Positions 4,540 to 13,000 of a stretch of DNA of 29,045 nucleotides are shown one piece after another. Source of the stretch: a virus. Its lineage: Duplodnaviria; Heunggongvirae; Uroviricota; Caudoviricetes. Each line of letters starts with the position of its first letter. The first letter of the stretch is position 1. Made by a program: the position numbers and the translations under genes. The notes under the pieces were generated by a model. It was not told the DNA's origin and ran no database searches. It saw only the letters and a list, made by a program, of their open reading frames with translations. Where the stretch lies: the IMG/VR virus record IMGVR_UViG_2778261464_000005; one strand, written 5' to 3'.

Positions 4540-5214
4540 TTAGGCTTTGATTTTGTATCTTCTTGGTTTTCCTGAGAAAATCACAGTACCAATTATAGAG
4601 CAATTACCGTTGATCTTAATGTAAGGCTCAGGCCAGTTTGGGTTTAACGCTTTGAGATAACGCTGTGTCCCATCTTCTATCAACCTTTTGAAGGTGGTTT
4701 CACCTGTATCGTGCATCAATGCAATAACGTCGTCACCGTGGCAGGCAGGTACTTCAGGATCGACAAAAATCATGTCTCCCGGGCGGTACTCATCAATCAT
4801 TGAATCACCTATCACCCGCAAGATATAAGTCATTTCCCCACAGGGTACAGGGCAGGGATACGTTTCTGCTGTGCTCAAATCAACCTCAGAATATCCAACT
4901 TCTTTCCATGCTCCGGCCTGTACCCATGATATGACAGGGACTAATGTGATTTGTTTATTAGTGATTGAAACATCAGGTTTTTTTGTGATGTTCGTTGTCT
5001 GGTGTTCTTGATCGAGCCATCCGACAGGCAGGTCGAAACATTTTTCGATGTGTCGTGCCATGCTGTCACCGATATTTTTAGTAGCACCATCTCCCATAAA
5101 CCTGCTGGTTTGGGTTGGCTCGCGATCAATCATAGTGGCAAAGGAAGAATTCCCGCCAACACCATCTCTCAGTTTTCTGGCGTTAGACCGCCGGATGTCA
5201 TGGATTGTTTTCAT
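4540..5214 (-). CDS. cI: CI-type prophage repressor (N-terminal HTH + C-terminal S24 LexA-like autopeptidase)
   Basis: 224 aa. The C-terminal segment VIGDSMIDEYRPGDMIFVDPE...FKRLIEDG...LKALNPNWP matches the S24 peptidase motif of lambda CI/LexA. Divergent from the Cro-like gene across an operator-bearing intergenic region. Confidence 0.85.
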   Translation of the reverse strand: MKTIHDIRRSNARKLRDGVGGNSSFATMIDREPTQTSRFMGDGATKNIGDSMARHIEKCFDLPVGWLDQEHQTTNITKKPDVSITNKQITLVPVISWVQAGAWKEVGYSEVDLSTAETYPCPVPCGEMTYILRVIGDSMIDEYRPGDMIFVDPEVPACHGDDVIALMHDTGETTFKRLIEDGTQRYLKALNPNWPEPYIKINGNCSIIGTVIFSGKPRRYKIKA

Positions 5215-6461: not shown

Positions 6462-7392
6462 ATTAACCGGCTATGTATGGGATGGTTGCGCTGCGTCAGG
6501 CATGAAATTATCCAGCGTGGCAATTATGGCCCGCCTGGCTGATTTCAGTAATGACGAAGGTGTGTGCTGGCCATCAATTGAAACCATTGCCCGTCAGATT
6601 GGCGCGGGGATGAGTACCGTCAGAACGGCTATCGCACGGCTGGAAGCAGAAGGCTGGTTAACGCGTAAGGCGCGTCGCCAGGGTAACCGCAATGCGTCGA
6701 ATGTTTATCAGCTTAACGTTGCGAAGCTTCAGGCAGCGGCATTTTCTCAACTGTCAGATTCTGACCCGTCAAAATCTGACGCATCAAAATCTGACCCGTC
6801 AAAATTTGATGCGTCGAAATCTGGCAAAAAAGCGGGTTTTCACCCGTCAGAATCTGGCGGGGATCCGTCAGTAAAATCAAAACATGATCCGTCAGATAAA
6901 AAACCTTCTCGTCCGGACGCTTCGCAACCGGACACGCAGACGGCTGAACAGGATTTTTTAACTCGCCATCCTGATGCGGTTGTATTCAGCCCTAAAAAGC
7001 GCCAGTGGGGGACGCAGGATGATTTGACCTGCGCACAGTGGCTCTGGAAAAAAATCATCGCCCTGTACGAGCAGGCTGCCGAATGTGACGGCGAGGTGGT
7101 TCGTCCCAAAGAACCGAACTGGACAGCCTGGGCAAACGAAATTCGCCTGATGTGTGTACAGGATGGGCGTACTCACAAACAAATCTGCGAGATGTACAGC
7201 CGCGTCAGCCGCGATCCGTTCTGGTGCCGTAACGTGCTCAGCCCGTCGAAGCTGCGGGAAAAATGGGATGAGCTTTCCCTGCGCTTATCGCCGTCCGTCA
7301 GCACGTACACCGAAAAACGCGAGGACCCGTACTTCAAAGCCAGTTACGACAACGTGGACTACAGCCAGATCCCGGCAGGATTCAGAGGGTGA
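6451..7392 (+). CDS. Replication initiation protein (N-terminal HTH; iteron-encoded repeat linker; C-terminal Trp-rich domain)
   Basis: 313 aa. N-terminal LSSVAIMARLADFSNDEGVCWPSIETIARQIGAGMSTVRTAIARLEAEGWL is typical of phage replication-initiator HTH domains. The middle SDPSK/SDASK/SDPSK/FDASK repeats are encoded by the tandem DNA repeats. Position after cII mirrors lambda O. Confidence 0.75.
   Translation: MSTKLTGYVWDGCAASGMKLSSVAIMARLADFSNDEGVCWPSIETIARQIGAGMSTVRTAIARLEAEGWLTRKARRQGNRNASNVYQLNVAKLQAAAFSQLSDSDPSKSDASKSDPSKFDASKSGKKAGFHPSESGGDPSVKSKHDPSDKKPSRPDASQPDTQTAEQDFLTRHPDAVVFSPKKRQWGTQDDLTCAQWLWKKIIALYEQAAECDGEVVRPKEPNWTAWANEIRLMCVQDGRTHKQICEMYSRVSRDPFWCRNVLSPSKLREKWDELSLRLSPSVSTYTEKREDPYFKASYDNVDYSQIPAGFRG
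6755..6900 (+). repeat. Iteron array (probable origin of replication) inside the replication initiator gene
   Basis: Five tandem 15-bp units (TCTGACCCGTCAAAA, TCTGACGCATCAAAA, TCTGACCCGTCAAAA, TTTGATGCGTCGAAA, TCTGGC...) followed by three more CCGTCAG-containing units and an A-rich tract (GATAAAAAACC). Coordinates approximate. Confidence 0.6.
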
Positions 7393-7394
7393 TC

Positions 7395-7883
7395 ATGAGT
7401 CTGTTAAATGACGTTCAGAAATTCATTGAAGCCCATCCGGGGTGTACTTCCGGAGACATTGCGGATGCTTTTGCAGGTTACTCACGGCAGCGCGTTCTGC
7501 AGTCTGCAAGCAAGTTACGTCAGAGTGGGCGTGTGGCTCACCGTTGTGAAGGAGATACACGCAGACATTTCCCGCGCCTGACTGAGAGAGCGCAGGAACC
7601 GGAACCACAACCAGTTCGAGAAACCAGACCTGTGCGCAATTTCTATGTCGGCACTAACGATCCACGGGTGATTTTGTGCCTGACCCGCCAGGCTGAAGAA
7701 CTGGAGTCCAGGGGCTTATACCGTCGTGCTGCAACCGTGTGGATGGCGGCATTCCGTGAAAGCCACTCCCAGCCAGAACGAAACAATTTTCTGGCGCGTC
7801 GTGAGCTGTGTTTACGTAAAAGCAGCAAGCGCGCTGTATCGAGTGATGAGTGGTATCTGTCAGGGAATTACGTGGGGGCGTAA
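7395..7883 (+). CDS. Hypothetical protein, possibly replication-associated (helix-rich N-terminus)
   Basis: ATG 7395 is 3 nt after the replication gene stop, with AGAGGG upstream; 162 aa. Its stop overlaps the next start (TAATG). Confidence 0.5.
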   Translation: MSLLNDVQKFIEAHPGCTSGDIADAFAGYSRQRVLQSASKLRQSGRVAHRCEGDTRRHFPRLTERAQEPEPQPVRETRPVRNFYVGTNDPRVILCLTRQAEELESRGLYRRAATVWMAAFRESHSQPERNNFLARRELCLRKSSKRAVSSDEWYLSGNYVGA

Positions 7884-8209
7884 TGACGACGTTAACTCAA
7901 TGCCAGCAGCAGGTGCTGGATATGCTGATTTCTTATCAGAAAGAGCGTGGCTTTCCGCCAACCAATCAGGAGGTGGCAACCATGCTGGGATACCGTTCAG
8001 TGAATGCAGCGGTAGAGCATCTTCGCGCACTGGAGAAAAAAGGCGTCATCACGATAAAGCGTGGCGTGGCCCGGGGGATAACGCTTCATACCGCGGTGAA
8101 GGACGACGACAGCGAGGCGGTCGGGATTATCCGCGCACTGCTTGCCGGTGAGGAAAACGCAAGGCTGCGTGCAACCCACTGGTTACATGAGAGGGGCCTG
8201 AAAGTATGA
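7883..8209 (+). CDS. LexA N-terminal DNA-binding-domain-like protein without a peptidase domain
   Basis: Internal ATG 7883 overlaps the upstream stop. LTQCQQQVLDMLISYQKERGFPPTNQEVATMLGYRSVNAAVEHLRALEKKGVITIKRGVARGITL is colinear with the LexA winged-helix N-terminus as I recall it. Only ~108 aa, so no S24 domain. Confidence 0.65.
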   Translation: MTTLTQCQQQVLDMLISYQKERGFPPTNQEVATMLGYRSVNAAVEHLRALEKKGVITIKRGVARGITLHTAVKDDDSEAVGIIRALLAGEENARLRATHWLHERGLKV

Positions 8210-8595
8210 AGCTGATCCTGCCTTTTCCGCCCAGCGTGAACACGTACTGGCGACACCCCAACAAAGGGGCGTTTGCTGGTAAGAGCCTGATAAGCGCGGC
8301 GGGGCGAAAATTCCAGAGCGCAGCGTGCGCAGCAATAGTTGAGCAGTTACGTCGTCTGCCGAAACCAACGTCGGCACCTGCTTCAGTGGAGATCGTGTTG
8401 TTTCCTCCGGATAACCGGATCCGCGATCTGGACAACTATAACAAGGCGCTGTTTGACGCCCTGACCCACGCGGGTGTGTGGGAAGACGACAGCCAAGTGA
8501 AAAGAATGTTGGTGGAGTGGGGACCGGTTATCCCGGAAGGGAAGGTCGAGATCACTATCAGTAAGTACGAGAAACCGGCGGGTGCAGCCGCCTGA
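8206..8595 (+). CDS. rusA: RusA-family Holliday junction resolvase
   Basis: 129 aa; PFPPSVNTYWRH...RDLDNYNKALFDALTHAGVWEDDSQV matches E. coli RusA motifs. Typical nin-region position. Confidence 0.85.
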   Translation: MKLILPFPPSVNTYWRHPNKGAFAGKSLISAAGRKFQSAACAAIVEQLRRLPKPTSAPASVEIVLFPPDNRIRDLDNYNKALFDALTHAGVWEDDSQVKRMLVEWGPVIPEGKVEITISKYEKPAGAAA

Positions 8596-8614: not shown

Positions 8615-9412
8615 ATGAATAATCTGATGGTCATTGATGGTATTGAAGTTCGTCGTGATGCTTATGGGCGTTACAGCCTGAACGATCTGCACAGGGCTGC
8701 CGGTTCTCTGGATAAGCATAAGCCTGCATTCTGGCTCCGCAATGAGCAAACTGAACGTTTAATAAGCGAGTTGCAGATTTGCAACTCGGTCAATATAGAG
8801 CCAGTTAACGTTATTCGTGGCGGAAATAACCAGGAGACGTATGTCTGCAAAGAACTGGTGTATGCCTATGCAATGTGGATCAGCCCGTCATTCCATCTGA
8901 AGGTGATCCGTACTTTCGATATGGTAACCAGCGCACCGGAAAAATTATCCGGACAGGCTGCTGACAAGATGCAGGCTGGTGTGATTCTGCTGGACTTTAT
9001 GCGCCGGGAATTAAACCTGTCTAACTCTTCAGTGCTTGGTGCCTGTCAGAAACTCCAGGAGGCTGTTGGCTTACCGAATCTGGCACCGCGCTATGCCATT
9101 GATGCTCCTGCTGATGCACTCGATGGCTCAAGCCGCCCTACGCTATCATTGAGTGCACTGCTGAAGCAGTATGGTATCCGCCTTACGGCTAATCAGGCAT
9201 ATCACCAGATGGTGAAGCTGGGGATCGTCGAACAGCGCGAACGATACAGCCGTACCGCGATTAACAACATCAAAAAATTCTGGTCGCTGACAGCGAAAGG
9301 CTGCATGTTCGGCAAGAACATCACCAGTCCCGCAAATCCGCGCGAGACGCAGCCGCACTTTTTCGAATCCCGATTCCCTGAGCTGTTAAAGCTGCTCGAT
9401 ACCGTTCATTGA
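8615..9412 (+). CDS. KilA-N domain protein (antirepressor-like, or a BstA-like abortive-infection protein)
   Basis: N-terminal ~100 aa (VRRDAYGRYSLNDLHRAAG...PAFWLRNEQTERLISEL) looks like a KilA-N domain; C-terminal ~160 aa is unassigned. Confidence 0.65.
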   Translation: MNNLMVIDGIEVRRDAYGRYSLNDLHRAAGSLDKHKPAFWLRNEQTERLISELQICNSVNIEPVNVIRGGNNQETYVCKELVYAYAMWISPSFHLKVIRTFDMVTSAPEKLSGQAADKMQAGVILLDFMRRELNLSNSSVLGACQKLQEAVGLPNLAPRYAIDAPADALDGSSRPTLSLSALLKQYGIRLTANQAYHQMVKLGIVEQRERYSRTAINNIKKFWSLTAKGCMFGKNITSPANPRETQPHFFESRFPELLKLLDTVH

Positions 9413-9419
9413 GGTTACC

Positions 9420-10088
9420 GTGAGAGCACTACTGACCCCTGAAATTGCCCCGCGTATGGGGATCGTATTGTTCAGACCAGGTTCAGAGCTGATGCCCCTG
9501 TTTATGCAGGGGCGTGTCCTGCTGGAGCCTGAGCCGGAGCATTATTCATCTTTCGCCAGTGGTGCCGTTCCCGCGGCATCACAACCGCTGGCGGATGATC
9601 CTGCCGTTCGGGCCGTGTTCCGTAATGAGGCAGTGATTCGTCGTGCTGGTGGGGTGGAATGTCTTGAAAGCTGGTTACTTCGTGAAAAAGGCTGCCAGTG
9701 GCCTCATTCCGACTGGCACAGCGAGAACATGACCACAATGCGACACGCGCCGGGCGCAATCCGTCTGTGCTGGCACTGTGATAACCAGCTGCGCGATCAG
9801 TTCACGGAACGGCTGGAATCAATGGCAACGGATAACTGTGCCCGGTGGGTGTTATCTGTCGTGCGTCGGGATCTCGGTTTTAATGATAGTCACGTTGTGA
9901 CAATGCCGGAACTGTGCTGGTGGCTGGTTCGTAATGACCTGGCGGATGCCTTACCGGAAAGTGCAGCCCGTAAGGCACTGAGATTACCGAAGCCTGTTGT
10001 GCCGTCTGTCACCCGGGAAAGTGACCTTGTGCCTTCGGTTCCTGCCCCAGCATCATCCAGGATAAAGCGAAAAAGGTGCTGGCGCTGA
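9420..10088 (+). CDS. Hypothetical nin-region protein (possibly the N-terminal part of a split DUF968/YdfU-like gene)
   Basis: GTG 9420 preceded by GAGG; 222 aa. Its last ~60 nt overlap the next ORF, whose frame is open from 10025. Confidence 0.45.
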   Translation: MRALLTPEIAPRMGIVLFRPGSELMPLFMQGRVLLEPEPEHYSSFASGAVPAASQPLADDPAVRAVFRNEAVIRRAGGVECLESWLLREKGCQWPHSDWHSENMTTMRHAPGAIRLCWHCDNQLRDQFTERLESMATDNCARWVLSVVRRDLGFNDSHVVTMPELCWWLVRNDLADALPESAARKALRLPKPVVPSVTRESDLVPSVPAPASSRIKRKRCWR

Positions 10089-10408
10089 AAGTGGATCCGG
10101 AGTCGCCGGAGTCTTTTATGTTACGCCCCAAACGTCGCCGCTGGGTTAATGAAAAGTACACGCGCTGGGTTAAGACGCAGCCGTGCGCATGTTGTGGAAA
10201 GCCTGCTGATGATGCCCACCACCTGATAGGTCACGGTCAGGGTGGAATGGGTACAAAAGCGCATGACCTTTTTGTGTTGCCTTTGTGCAGAAAGCATCAC
10301 GACGAGCTGCATGCGGATACCGTGGTATTTGAAGAGAAGTATGGCTCCCAGTTGGAGCTGATATTTCGTTTTATTGATCGTGCGCTGGCAATTGGCGTGC
10401 TGGCCTGA
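10076..10408 (+). CDS. DUF968-like zinc-binding protein
   Basis: Motif CACCGKPADDAHHLIGHGQGGMGTKAHDLFVLPLCRKHHDELH (Cys/His cluster), which I recall as characteristic of phage DUF968/YdfU proteins. GTG start; the true N-terminus may lie in the upstream ORF. Confidence 0.5.
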   Translation: MLALKVDPESPESFMLRPKRRRWVNEKYTRWVKTQPCACCGKPADDAHHLIGHGQGGMGTKAHDLFVLPLCRKHHDELHADTVVFEEKYGSQLELIFRFIDRALAIGVLA

Positions 10409-10422
10409 TTTGGTGGAGAAAG

Positions 10423-10773
10423 TTGATGCGTGATATGTATGAAGTATTGGACCGCTGGGGAGCATGGGCTGCAGCAGAAAATAGTGGTGTGGACTGGCAG
10501 CCGATAGCGGCTGGTTTCAAGGGACTTTTACCACACGGTAAAAAGTCACGTCTCCAGTGTGATGATGATGAAGGCATCATGATAGATAGTTGTGTGGCTA
10601 GGTTGCGTAAATATAAGCCGGAAGAGTATGAGCTGATAATTGCTCACTTTGTTATCGGTATCTCATTACGCACTATTGCGAAGAAGAGAAAATGCTCTGA
10701 TGGGACTATAAGAAAAAAGTTGCAAGCTGCATTGGGATTTATTGATGCAGTTATATATATAATACATGGGTAA
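10423..10773 (+). CDS. Q: Late-gene antiterminator Q
   Basis: 116 aa; VLDRWGAWAAAENSGVDWQPIAAGFKGLLPHGKKSRLQCDDDEGIMIDSCVARL...CSDGTIRKKL matches the phage antitermination protein Q family. Sits just before the late region. Confidence 0.8.
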   Translation: MMRDMYEVLDRWGAWAAAENSGVDWQPIAAGFKGLLPHGKKSRLQCDDDEGIMIDSCVARLRKYKPEEYELIIAHFVIGISLRTIAKKRKCSDGTIRKKLQAALGFIDAVIYIIHG

Positions 10774-10780
10774 TTTATTA

Positions 10781-10799
10781 GACGGCCATATTGGCCGTC
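10781..10799. terminator. Perfect hairpin (GACGGCCA-TAT-TGGCCGTC) between convergent Q and the minus-strand cassette; possible bidirectional terminator
   Basis: 8-bp perfect stem read directly; overlaps the stop codon of the 10798..11976 gene and lies 8 nt after the Q stop. No strong U-run on either side. Confidence 0.4.
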
Positions 10800-11976
10800 A
10801 GCTAAATAAATATGTAATAGCATAAGGCGTAAGTAAAAAGTAGAATCTAAATGTAAGATATAAGCCACATAAAACTATAATTCCTAATGAGGCAAAAACA
10901 ACTTTCTGAACAAGCAATCTTGTGGTTAAACTATCAAATGTATCCTTTATATCTTCGTAAATAGCCTTGAAGTTATATTCTGCTTGTTGTTTTTTATGAT
11001 TTAACTCATCATTTATTGCTGTTAAAGTTTGCCATTGATTAAATAGAACAAATAGAATCATAATAGTGAAGAACAATGCACCCAACACTACAGCTGTGTT
11101 TATTAATGCTTGACTATCCCAACCATTAGCCTGCTTCATTTGAGTCGCAACGATAATTGTTGCGACGGGGATACCTAATATCTGATTTTGTATGTCACTG
11201 AATACTTTATGTATTTTCCCCATCTCTTCTATTTTGGCTACTCGTAACTGATCCAGTATTTTCTCGTAAGAAAAACCAGAAACGAATACTTTGTATCCTT
11301 TTTGATAACTTTCATAAAGTTGTCCTAAATCCCTTAACATGAAGGAAAAAGAGGTTTCTTTAGTTTTAGATTCACATGATGATTTTATACTACTTGCTAA
11401 AATAGTAAGTTTTTGATCTTTATGCGTATCTTCTGCAAAGTTTGCGATCAAATTATGAATCAGATCTCCATTAACATTCATAAGATCATCGCTAGAATAA
11501 TTTACTGGAATTTTTAGTACGTTGGATTCGACGAATACCAATTCAAAATTTGTTTCATCTAAATAAGCAGAACAATCTTTGAATAAAGTAATTAAGCTCA
11601 AAACATCTCTGTACTTGGATATAATAGCAGGCGACTTTTTATCCCTGTTGTGATAATTAAGTTCGATTATAAAGAAGTTACTGGCTTCCTTTATCCTATT
11701 TTTAGGATTTTTTAAATACTCATTAAAAGAGAAATGTAGCTGCCCCAATCGTAATTTGGGGGGGGTTATATGTAAGGTTATAGTTTGGCCTAACTCAATG
11801 TTGCCAGATTCAAGGGTGATGCCAAAATCATGGGGATTCTCTGTGATATCGTTGATGATGTCACAGAGCTCCTCGTTTGAAAGAATGAGTGATGCTTCAG
11901 ATAGGGTACCTGCAAATGTAGCGGCCTTGTAAATAGTCACTAAGTCTTTGAAGGTTCTCTGATTGTTACTGCTCAT
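10798..11976 (-). CDS. Hypothetical protein with ~280-aa soluble N-terminal domain and two C-terminal transmembrane helices (candidate membrane effector)
   Basis: ATG 11976 preceded by AGGTGA; starts 7 nt after the upstream gene stop (operon). Hydrophobic helices ALINTAVVLGALFFTIMILFVLF and VVFASLGIIVLCGLYLTFRFYFLL. AT-rich, no recognisable enzymatic motif. Confidence 0.7.
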   Translation of the reverse strand: MSSNNQRTFKDLVTIYKAATFAGTLSEASLILSNEELCDIINDITENPHDFGITLESGNIELGQTITLHITPPKLRLGQLHFSFNEYLKNPKNRIKEASNFFIIELNYHNRDKKSPAIISKYRDVLSLITLFKDCSAYLDETNFELVFVESNVLKIPVNYSSDDLMNVNGDLIHNLIANFAEDTHKDQKLTILASSIKSSCESKTKETSFSFMLRDLGQLYESYQKGYKVFVSGFSYEKILDQLRVAKIEEMGKIHKVFSDIQNQILGIPVATIIVATQMKQANGWDSQALINTAVVLGALFFTIMILFVLFNQWQTLTAINDELNHKKQQAEYNFKAIYEDIKDTFDSLTTRLLVQKVVFASLGIIVLCGLYLTFRFYFLLTPYAITYLFS

Positions 11977-13000
11977 CCTCTTCACCTAATTCTGATAAAA
12001 TCTCTGATCTTAGCGTATCCGGAATCTCGGTAAGTATCAATTTATCGTTTTCTGAATCATAAAGAACGCTGCCATCATGCAAGGCCGCACGCTCGAATTT
12101 CAGAGACCAATGTTTGGACTTTCCTTTGAAACTAACAAGCCCACGTATAACGTTGCCATCAGGCACGAACCCATCAGAGAACTCCAGATCGTCATTGGTT
12201 AACTTTTCAACTAACAACTCAGGAGCAGTTGGCCATATCTCGTTTGCAAAAATTTGAGTGTCGAAAGTTTCACCAGAACGATTTAAATTTTTTAATTTTT
12301 CATGAGCCTTATTTAGGAACTCTTCACGTGCCTCTGGTTCAAAACCTCTTTCAGTAGCAAATTCTAAAAGTGCATTCCGTAATTTTGTTGTTTCTTGTTT
12401 GGCAATTAGAATATCGTTGCAACCTAAAAACTTTTTGAAATAACCTGCTACTGAATTTTGCCCCTTTAGAAAGCTAATATATCTCTCTTTGCCATTCTGG
12501 CGCCCAGTTAAGTCAATTCGTCCCGCTACTCGAAGTTTAGCAATGTCTAGATATTCACTTTCTTGAATTTCAAAATCGTGGACTGAAGAGCCAACTGCTG
12601 ATGTTAGGATTGCAACCATCAAATAATGATTTCCATTTACCTCATTATGGGCAATTATTACATAACCACCAGTAGACATTGATTCATCATCGGCTCTGGC
12701 TTTTAAATGATTGATCATTCGGATACTAGTATCATAAAAACTATGTGTTTTATTTACGAAATAATCATCAACGATATTACCCATAGGGTAACTATCGCGG
12801 TCATCTTCAAATTTCCCATATCCTTTACCTGCTCTCCCAGAGTACCTTTCAGTAAGTGCGTTAGAGAGGTCTTTTGATGCTTGCTGAACAGGTTTTTCTG
12901 AAGGACAAGGAATAATGGTGGCTAACCCCTGTTGTTCCTTGTTCATAATGTGAACAATAAACTTATGAGTGATATTAGTGGGGGTCGCTGATGCAGTCAT
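11966..13000 (-). CDS. Divergent NdpA/YejK-family (NA37) nucleoid-associated protein homologue
   Basis: 344 aa, about the size of YejK (~335 aa). Colinear blocks with E. coli YejK as I recall it: [20 protein letters not shown] vs [41 protein letters not shown] vs [40 protein letters not shown] vs [25 protein letters not shown]. AT-rich. Confidence 0.7.
   Translation of the reverse strand: [344 protein letters not shown]

Follow-up and report, generated by a model that had tools for sequence, protein, structure and literature searches.

What can a phage protein do with the DNA-binding domain of LexA when it lacks the domain through which LexA cleaves itself? The question is raised by a 108-amino-acid (aa) protein encoded in the window, by which we mean the whole 29,045-nucleotide stretch of the IMG/VR virus record IMGVR_UViG_2778261464_000005 (Caudoviricetes). 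A preliminary description, made from the sequence alone, had suggested that this LexA-like protein occupies SOS boxes as a non-inducible mimic of LexA, or that it represses a phage antirepressor. For both proposals we found circumstantial support in relatives, namely SOS boxes at their loci and residues that they share with helix 3 of LexA. The reading that we favour, tentatively and at somewhat less than an even chance, is that of a RecA-proof protein that would bind operators of the SOS-box (CTGT) type and would be dimerised by a conserved C-terminal tail.

The LexA-like protein and its family

Profile searches bore out the assignment to the LexA N-terminal domain. The Pfam model LexA_DNA_bind (PF01726) matched residues 1-65 on profile positions 1-65/65 with 69 bits (cutoff 23.7, E = 2.9e-19), and no Pfam match to Peptidase_S24 was obtained in the 108-aa protein, in agreement with the earlier statement that the autocleavage domain is missing. 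Residues 1-108 were covered by PHROG 362 ("transcriptional repressor"; profile positions 1-106/106, E = 1.2e-59). The closest PDB sequences were the N-terminal domain of E. coli LexA (1lea, E = 6e-16) and full-length LexA (E about 1e-15), and the identity to E. coli LexA in the alignment was 44%. The NCBIfam model lexA (TIGR00498) scored 70.5 bits, under its equivalog cutoff of 110.95, and only profile positions 1-91/203 were aligned. Judged by this score and by the lack of both the S24 Ser/Lys dyad and a conserved Ala-Gly pair, the protein would not qualify as a bona fide LexA repressor. The sole match among the PADLOC defence models was a weak one of the winged helix to a CARF-associated model (E = 3.6e-4, 18 bits); it is not meaningful, and a role in a defence system was dropped.

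A structure was predicted with AlphaFold2 (AF2) from an alignment of 16 family sequences, with a mean predicted local distance difference test score (pLDDT) of 84. The first 68 residues of the model superposed on the LexA-DNA complex 3jso with a root-mean-square deviation (rmsd) of 1.0 Å over 68 columns at 50% identity, and Foldseek comparisons with 3jso and 1lea gave rmsd values of 1.0-1.3 Å and 49-51% identity over 67-70 superposed residues. A linker at residues 71-75 is poorly defined in the model, and beyond it lies the two-helix tail (Table 1). The tail has the consensus EAVxxIRALLxxExxARxRAxxWLxxRG, in which A97 and L101 are invariant, and it is kept in distant homologues. A search of PDB structures returned nothing that matches the tail beyond the N-terminal domain. 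This conserved two-helix tail is newly described here for the LexA-like family, and it is probably a dimerisation or partner-binding module.

Residue conservation was counted over 165 distinct full-length members and compared with the DNA contacts of LexA helix 3, which are S39, N41, A42, E44 and E45 (PMC3091678). All members (100%) keep S39, 99% keep N41 and about 95% keep A42; an acidic residue, E or D, occupies position 45 in about 83%, and the R64-G65-I66 wing is present in about 100%. The HMMER alignment reaches LexA residues 79-86 and places Ala88-Gly89 of the window protein ("LLAGE") opposite Ala84-Gly85 of LexA ("VAAGE"). A remnant of the LexA cleavage site was considered and rejected, because the pair is not conserved (AN or VG in close relatives; TR, ER, DD, CS or DT in distant ones) and lies inside the confident AF2 helix 74-88. 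With neither a cleavage site nor an S24 domain, the protein cannot be inactivated by activated RecA.

Full-length relatives, 106-135 aa long and as distant as about 39% identity, came to light in an exhaustive HMMER search. Pairwise ratios of nonsynonymous to synonymous substitution rates (dN/dS) among eight relatives ranged from 0.12 to 0.61, with 0.15 between the window and SfV, and judged from these ratios the open reading frame (ORF) is under purifying selection, with conserved synteny. The shared frame, the tail and the dN/dS values mean that it is neither a chance ORF nor a frameshifted fragment of lexA. The preliminary description had named a fragment of a longer frameshifted gene among the cases that would overturn it, and this one is ruled out by the overlap with the RusA gene and by the presence of the protein's own C-terminal tail in homologues.

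DNA of the LexA-like gene was present in 2233 of 5426 complete E. coli genomes (about 41%), nearly always as one copy, and 100% identical chromosomal copies in E. coli carry the annotation "LexA family transcriptional regulator". It is also found in the phages SfV (where orf42 is "unknown" in the original record), SfII, Kati and 2H10, and in several Shiga toxin (Stx) converting phages of the Stx2a, Stx2c and Stx2k kinds. The gene is thus already annotated and widespread. In strain 1190 the prophage lies at icd and carries intE, xisE, ymfK, ymfT and ymfL, a site and gene set that place it in the e14/SfV family. A viral scan with P0213 as query gave no match. We found no experimental work on the enterobacterial LexA-like family in the literature; papers on Gifsy-1 RtcR and Klebsiella DinR deal with other genes.

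SOS boxes and locus layouts

A context survey of seven distant-homologue look-ups and 34 further viral loci (L numbers below) revealed two layouts. Type A comprises the window, SfV, L083-L088, L091/L092 and L120-L125, and its cI repressor carries an S24 domain. The order in its rightward early operon is replication gene, (PerC), (Dam/DNA methylase), LexA-like gene, RusA, (KilA-N or Rha/ANT), DUF968 and Q, with optional genes in brackets. Type B, a sister clade, comprises L089, L090, L093-L119, L126 and L128/129 and is found in prophages of Klebsiella, Raoultella, Enterobacter and Cedecea. Here the repressor is a 128-151-aa protein of the HTH_3 family without S24 (immunity region read in L089, L128 and L129), and the LexA-like protein carries a 25-aa N-terminal extension. 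The type-B operon lies behind a terminator and has a sigma-70 promoter with a canonical SOS box overlapping or abutting its -10 region; then come (DinI), an ORF of 75-101 aa, the LexA-like gene, a 67-aa ORF, (RusA), DUF968 and Q. RusA adjoins the LexA-like gene with overlapping stop and start in all type-A and several type-B loci. The constant downstream partners are DUF968, which follows in nearly all loci, and Q, usually with RusA.

The position-weight matrix with which SOS boxes were scored was derived from 21 E. coli sites (Lewis 1994; Fernandez de Henestrosa 2000), and these training sites reach 13-27 bits on it. A box of 17-30 bits was found upstream of the LexA-like gene in 30/30 type-B loci, which represent roughly six to eight sequence lineages; every locus had one within 2.4 kb of the gene, and 27 loci had one within 700 bp. 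The box of the L105 phage is TACTGTTTATTTATACAGTA. None of the 16 type-A loci had an SOS box within 2.5 kb upstream. An unbiased enumeration of exact 5+5 palindromes with spacers of 0-12, which could miss degenerate sites, recovered ACTGT-N8-ACAGT in 8/9 type-B lineage representatives. Applied to 11 type-A loci in search of a private operator, the same enumeration gave only cI/Cro operators and palindromes in coding sequence, with no non-coding palindrome common to them.

Boxes were also found elsewhere around the gene in close relatives. We looked at 80 IMG/VR loci with a protein 99-100% identical to that of the window; 45 of them had at least one box of at least 18 bits within 6 kb. In ten of the 80 the box TACTGTATTTATGAACAGTG lies in a 150-bp spacer between RusA and KilA-N, directly before the KilA-N gene (L007 at 6765-6784, L016, L026, L039, L040, L053, L054, L059, L062 and L069). 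The L007-type spacer also holds promoter-like sequence, and the C-terminal half of the L007-type KilA-N protein is nearly identical to that of the window; from this arrangement the KilA-N gene of L007-type phages appears to be directly LexA-controlled. A DNA methyltransferase gene located between Q and the lysis genes (orf48 in SfV) has TACTGTAAAAATAAACAGTG at its 5' end in 24/80 loci; it is apparently an orphan methylase moron under LexA control. Boxes of this type stand at 11051-11070 in L001 and 7739-7758 in L090, and also in L095 and L121. A strong SOS box inside the coding sequence of the cI repressor (helix-turn-helix plus S24), for example TACTGTTTTTACATACAGTA, was likewise seen in 24/80. 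Such boxes are located at 1540-1559 in L004 (in the linker between the two domains), 836-855 in L083 and about 2531-2550 in L124, and the cI allele of the window has none; we are aware of no function ascribed to a LexA site within a cI gene. On these positions the LexA-like gene is tightly linked to predicted LexA-controlled promoters in many relatives.

The small type-B ORF of 75-101 aa (L089 4713-4961, L090 4724-4951, L105 5589-5894, L128 9670-9960) belongs to no Pfam family. In these phages, whose repressors lack S24, its place is invariably downstream of the SOS-box promoter or of DinI and upstream of the LexA-like gene, a position that makes it a candidate LexA-controlled antirepressor. 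Two unusual domain arrangements were also seen. In P0158 (240 aa) a LexA-like winged helix (residues 33-94) is fused to the C-terminal HNH part of DUF968 (112-237), which may reflect a deletion in a decaying prophage or be a Rosetta-stone hint of a functional link. P0132, P0133, P0148, P0151, P0153, P0156 and others carry tandem LexA_DNA_bind domains on one chain without S24, and such proteins would be covalent pseudo-dimers.

In the window itself (Table 1) the PerC stop codon TAA and the ATG of the LexA-like gene overlap by one base (TAATG), and the TGA of the latter overlaps the ATG of RusA (ATGA). A promoter or terminator of its own was rejected, since no such site was seen just upstream on the + strand. 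We read the LexA-like gene as functional and delayed-early, belonging to an e14/SfV-type lambdoid prophage of E. coli, transcribed within the rightward early operon and coupled in translation to PerC and RusA; its earlier placement in the replication/nin module was correct. The earlier statement that it sits just upstream of a KilA-N gene holds for the order but not for adjacency, since RusA lies between them; the RusA-to-KilA-N spacer is 20 bp and contains no SOS box. The S24 domain ascribed to the prophage's cI was confirmed, and with this repressor the window phage was classed as type A. DUF968 homologues measure 329-349 aa overall and 343-349 aa in distant loci, and the ORF is intact at 329-331 aa in strain 1190 (L002 13538-14527) and in L007 (7699-8694); the split DUF968 of the window is probably a frameshift or pseudogene.

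Table 1. Features of the LexA-like gene and its surroundings, in window coordinates.
Feature	Position	Strand	Evidence and remarks
Gene for LexA-like protein	7883..8209	+	108 aa, ATG start, TGA stop included; homologue of SfV orf42, PHROG 362
Winged helix-turn-helix domain, residues 1-68	7883..8086	+	helices 6-22, 28-35, 40-52; strands 56-58, 66-68 (AF2)
Recognition helix, residues 40-52, VNAAVEHLRALEK	8000..8038	+	equivalent, together with the preceding S39, to helix 3 of LexA (aligned with the E. coli protein)
C-terminal two-helix tail, residues 74-88 and 93-103	8102..8191	+	AF2 pLDDT about 90; family-specific
PerC-family gene (yfdN)	7389..7883	+	Pfam PerC, E = 1.1e-9; annotated yfdN in E. 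coli genomes
RusA Holliday-junction resolvase gene	8206..8595	+	Pfam RusA, E = 6e-15; adjacency kept in distant homologues
KilA-N domain gene, putative antirepressor/regulator	8615..9412	+	Pfam KilA-N, E = 7e-25; PHROG 129
DUF968/HNH-like gene, two overlapping ORFs	9420..10408	+	9420-10088 (222 aa), 10076-10408 (110 aa); Pfam DUF968
Q antiterminator gene	10423..10773	+	Pfam Phage_antitermQ, E = 1.2e-44; ends the conserved block from LexA-like gene to DUF968 and Q
cI-type repressor with S24, ymfK/cohE type	4540..5214	-	Peptidase_S24, E = 1.5e-26; NCBIfam LexA/UmuD C-terminal matches

Two slots of variable content were noted. In SfV, SfII and many Stx phages PerC and the LexA-like gene are separated by a dam-type methylase gene of about 650 bp (L001 6495-7148), and a DNA methylase often stands directly upstream in distant relatives too (L083, L088, L090, L091); the window lacks it, and PerC there abuts the LexA-like gene (7880-7885). 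The slot between Q and holin (10798-13000, - strand) holds a 343-aa NA37 protein (YejK-like nucleoid-associated, E = 8e-69) and a 394-aa protein without Pfam match. Elsewhere it carries a TIR-domain protein (strain 1190) or a methylase (SfV).

Possible functions of the LexA-like protein

If the LexA-like protein is a RecA-proof binder of SOS-type operators, the tail would replace the C-terminal domain of LexA as dimerisation module and the dimer would read CTGT-type palindromes. After cleavage of host LexA, or after infection, the protein would then put SOS-box promoters back under repression. Its targets in related phages would be the LexA-controlled operon of dinI, small ORF and LexA-like gene itself, the KilA-N gene and the methyltransferase moron. 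In type B this would amount to a delayed negative feedback on the DinI/small-ORF operon, akin to P22 Arc, and in L007-type phages the LexA-controlled KilA-N gene would be turned off. Arc is the feedback repressor of the P22 arc-ant operon, and its likeness to the LexA-like protein is functional only. The window phage has no SOS box, so its protein would find canonical targets only in the SOS genes of the host and in LexA-controlled elements on prophages or plasmids that share the cell.

Several observations speak against binding to SOS boxes. The preliminary description had pointed to CTGT-N8-ACAG boxes, and the window contains no perfect one; matches with one mismatch numbered 12 where 9.4 were expected, and no site reached 16 bits, the best scoring 15.5 against a shuffle maximum of 17.6. 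None of the 165 members has E at position 44 (which holds V, A, L, T or F) or R at the equivalent of LexA R28, so that the operator specificity may differ from that of LexA. About 15% of them have L, T or I at position 45, including clades behind SOS boxes. The KilA-N/Ant gene is optional in the family and missing from L088, L089 and L090. An upstream SOS box would be needed for control by host LexA in any case, and it is no proof that the LexA-like protein binds there. Moreover, the isolated N-terminal domain of LexA reportedly binds operators weakly (Little, Schnarr and colleagues). Our confidence is held at a tentative level by the replacement of E44 and R28 and by the indirect case for binding and dimerisation.

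The best window site, TACCGGTTATTTATACAGGT at 663-682, is probably a match by chance; it lies between convergent ORFs and adjoins an insertion sequence-type transposase gene (rve domains, 693-1529) situated left of the integrase.

A wider version of the same idea, which we regard as doubtful, would make the protein a genome-wide RecA-proof mimic of LexA that re-represses SOS promoters on induction or infection, shuts host SOS functions including ruvAB and silences rival elements. Those silenced would be LexA-controlled antirepressors, colicins and toxins of other mobile elements, and, more speculatively, the co-transcribed RusA could substitute if ruvAB were re-repressed.

The main alternative to SOS-box binding, which we consider rather unlikely, is that the protein regulates through a specific operator of its own that has drifted away from the SOS box; it would then activate or repress a phage promoter (nin-region, late or moron, for example) and leave the host SOS regulon alone. 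It has a precedent in gp6 of the Bacillus thuringiensis tectivirus GIL01, a truncated LexA homologue that activates the late promoter P3 via GaCACAnnTGTGaC (Fornelos et al. 2018, PMC6182141) and is a probable homologue of the present family (96.4% probability in hhalign). The systematic replacement of LexA E44 and R28 and the lack of an SOS box in the window fit such a regulator as well. However, the 11 type-A loci share no non-coding palindrome, although the same method recovered the SOS box of type B; the family retains S39, N41 and A42, which are changed in gp6; and the late genes are already served by the Q antiterminator.

We consider it improbable that the protein serves the RusA/DUF968 recombination-nuclease block as a DNA-binding accessory which targets or modulates junction resolution or HNH cutting and has no part in transcription. 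The overlapping stop and start shared with RusA, the DUF968 gene downstream in nearly every locus and the P0158 fusion point in this direction. But most type-B loci keep the LexA-like gene without RusA, P0158 is a single cluster that may be a deletion product, and lambdoid nin genes are often passed on as a block in fixed order without functional coupling. The LexA-type recognition helix is, moreover, conserved as would be expected for base-specific reading.

The notion of a LexA remnant that is cut in trans by S24 domains of host LexA, cI or UmuD type and so stays damage-responsive is highly improbable, as the Ala-Gly pair that the HMMER alignment sets opposite that of LexA varies among relatives and falls at the end of a confident helix, not in an exposed strand or loop.

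The SOS response governs prophage induction, mutagenesis, persistence and toxin release, and Stx phages carry the LexA-like gene. Should the protein bind SOS boxes, the host's switch for DNA damage and also the induction of nearby prophages could be overridden by a prophage gene that is very common, and a missing regulator would be supplied for a class of LexA-controlled antirepressor operons. Were it to act genome-wide, it would be a widespread phage "anti-SOS" factor in the E. coli genomes counted above; without SOS-box binding it would simply join the other small transcription factors of phages. The hypothesis lends itself to inexpensive tests and would bear on prophage competition and the control of SOS in E. 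coli and Klebsiella.

Comparison with known systems

The layout of type B resembles that of the Gifsy prophages, in which a LexA-controlled operon contains dinI, an antirepressor gene and irsA (Lemire et al. 2011, PMC3121763). In type B, too, a terminator and an SOS-box promoter are followed by dinI, a small ORF, then the LexA-like gene, nin genes and Q, and the S24-less repressors fit the scheme of LexA-controlled antirepressors (PMC3121763). The window phage differs in having an S24-type cI and no SOS-box operon: no SOS-box promoter of the kind seen in the Gifsy, 186 Tum and N15 AntC operons stands upstream in the window, and the spacer is missing as well. Two direct equivalences were rejected. 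The LexA-like protein is not IrsA, since the Gifsy-2 irsA homologue STM1020 is a DUF1367 protein (E = 4e-98) with no LexA_DNA_bind domain, and the small type-B ORF shows no BLASTP similarity to Gifsy-2 STM1020.1n.

Bacterial LexA, with its uncleavable form LexA(Ind-) and the LexA 1-84 fragment, ranks among the closest known systems. With bacterial LexA the family has in common the fold and most residues of helix 3 and the wing. It differs in lacking S24, Ser119/Lys156 and a conserved Ala-Gly pair and in the replacement of E44 and R28. LexA dimerises through its C-terminal domain, whereas in the modelled LexA-like protein the helical tail is the sole candidate for this role. Like LexA(Ind-), the LexA-like protein does not respond to activated RecA.

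The only characterised phage-encoded truncated LexA homologue that we found in the literature is gp6, which is 44% identical to the LexA N-terminal domain of its host (PMC6182141). Both gp6 and the LexA-like family consist of a phage-encoded LexA N-terminal winged helix without cleavage site or S24 domain. The hhalign comparison gave 32% identity over 63 columns; BLASTP found no alignment, which indicates that the two were probably acquired independently, from different hosts. They share a domain superfamily but are likely to form separate lineages. They also differ in phage type and gene context, and no conserved non-SOS palindrome at a late promoter, as in gp6, was found among exact 5+5 palindromes in the 11 type-A loci. 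At positions 41/42/44/45 gp6 has K/T/H/R, and its essential K38 lies opposite N41, whereas the present family keeps S39, N41 and A42; as far as sequence can tell, it therefore stays closer to LexA in its recognition residues than gp6 does. While gp6 has 66 aa and no tail, the LexA-like family carries a conserved two-helix tail of 35-40 aa. The gene of the window belongs with gp6 to a known kind, the phage-encoded truncated LexA homologues.

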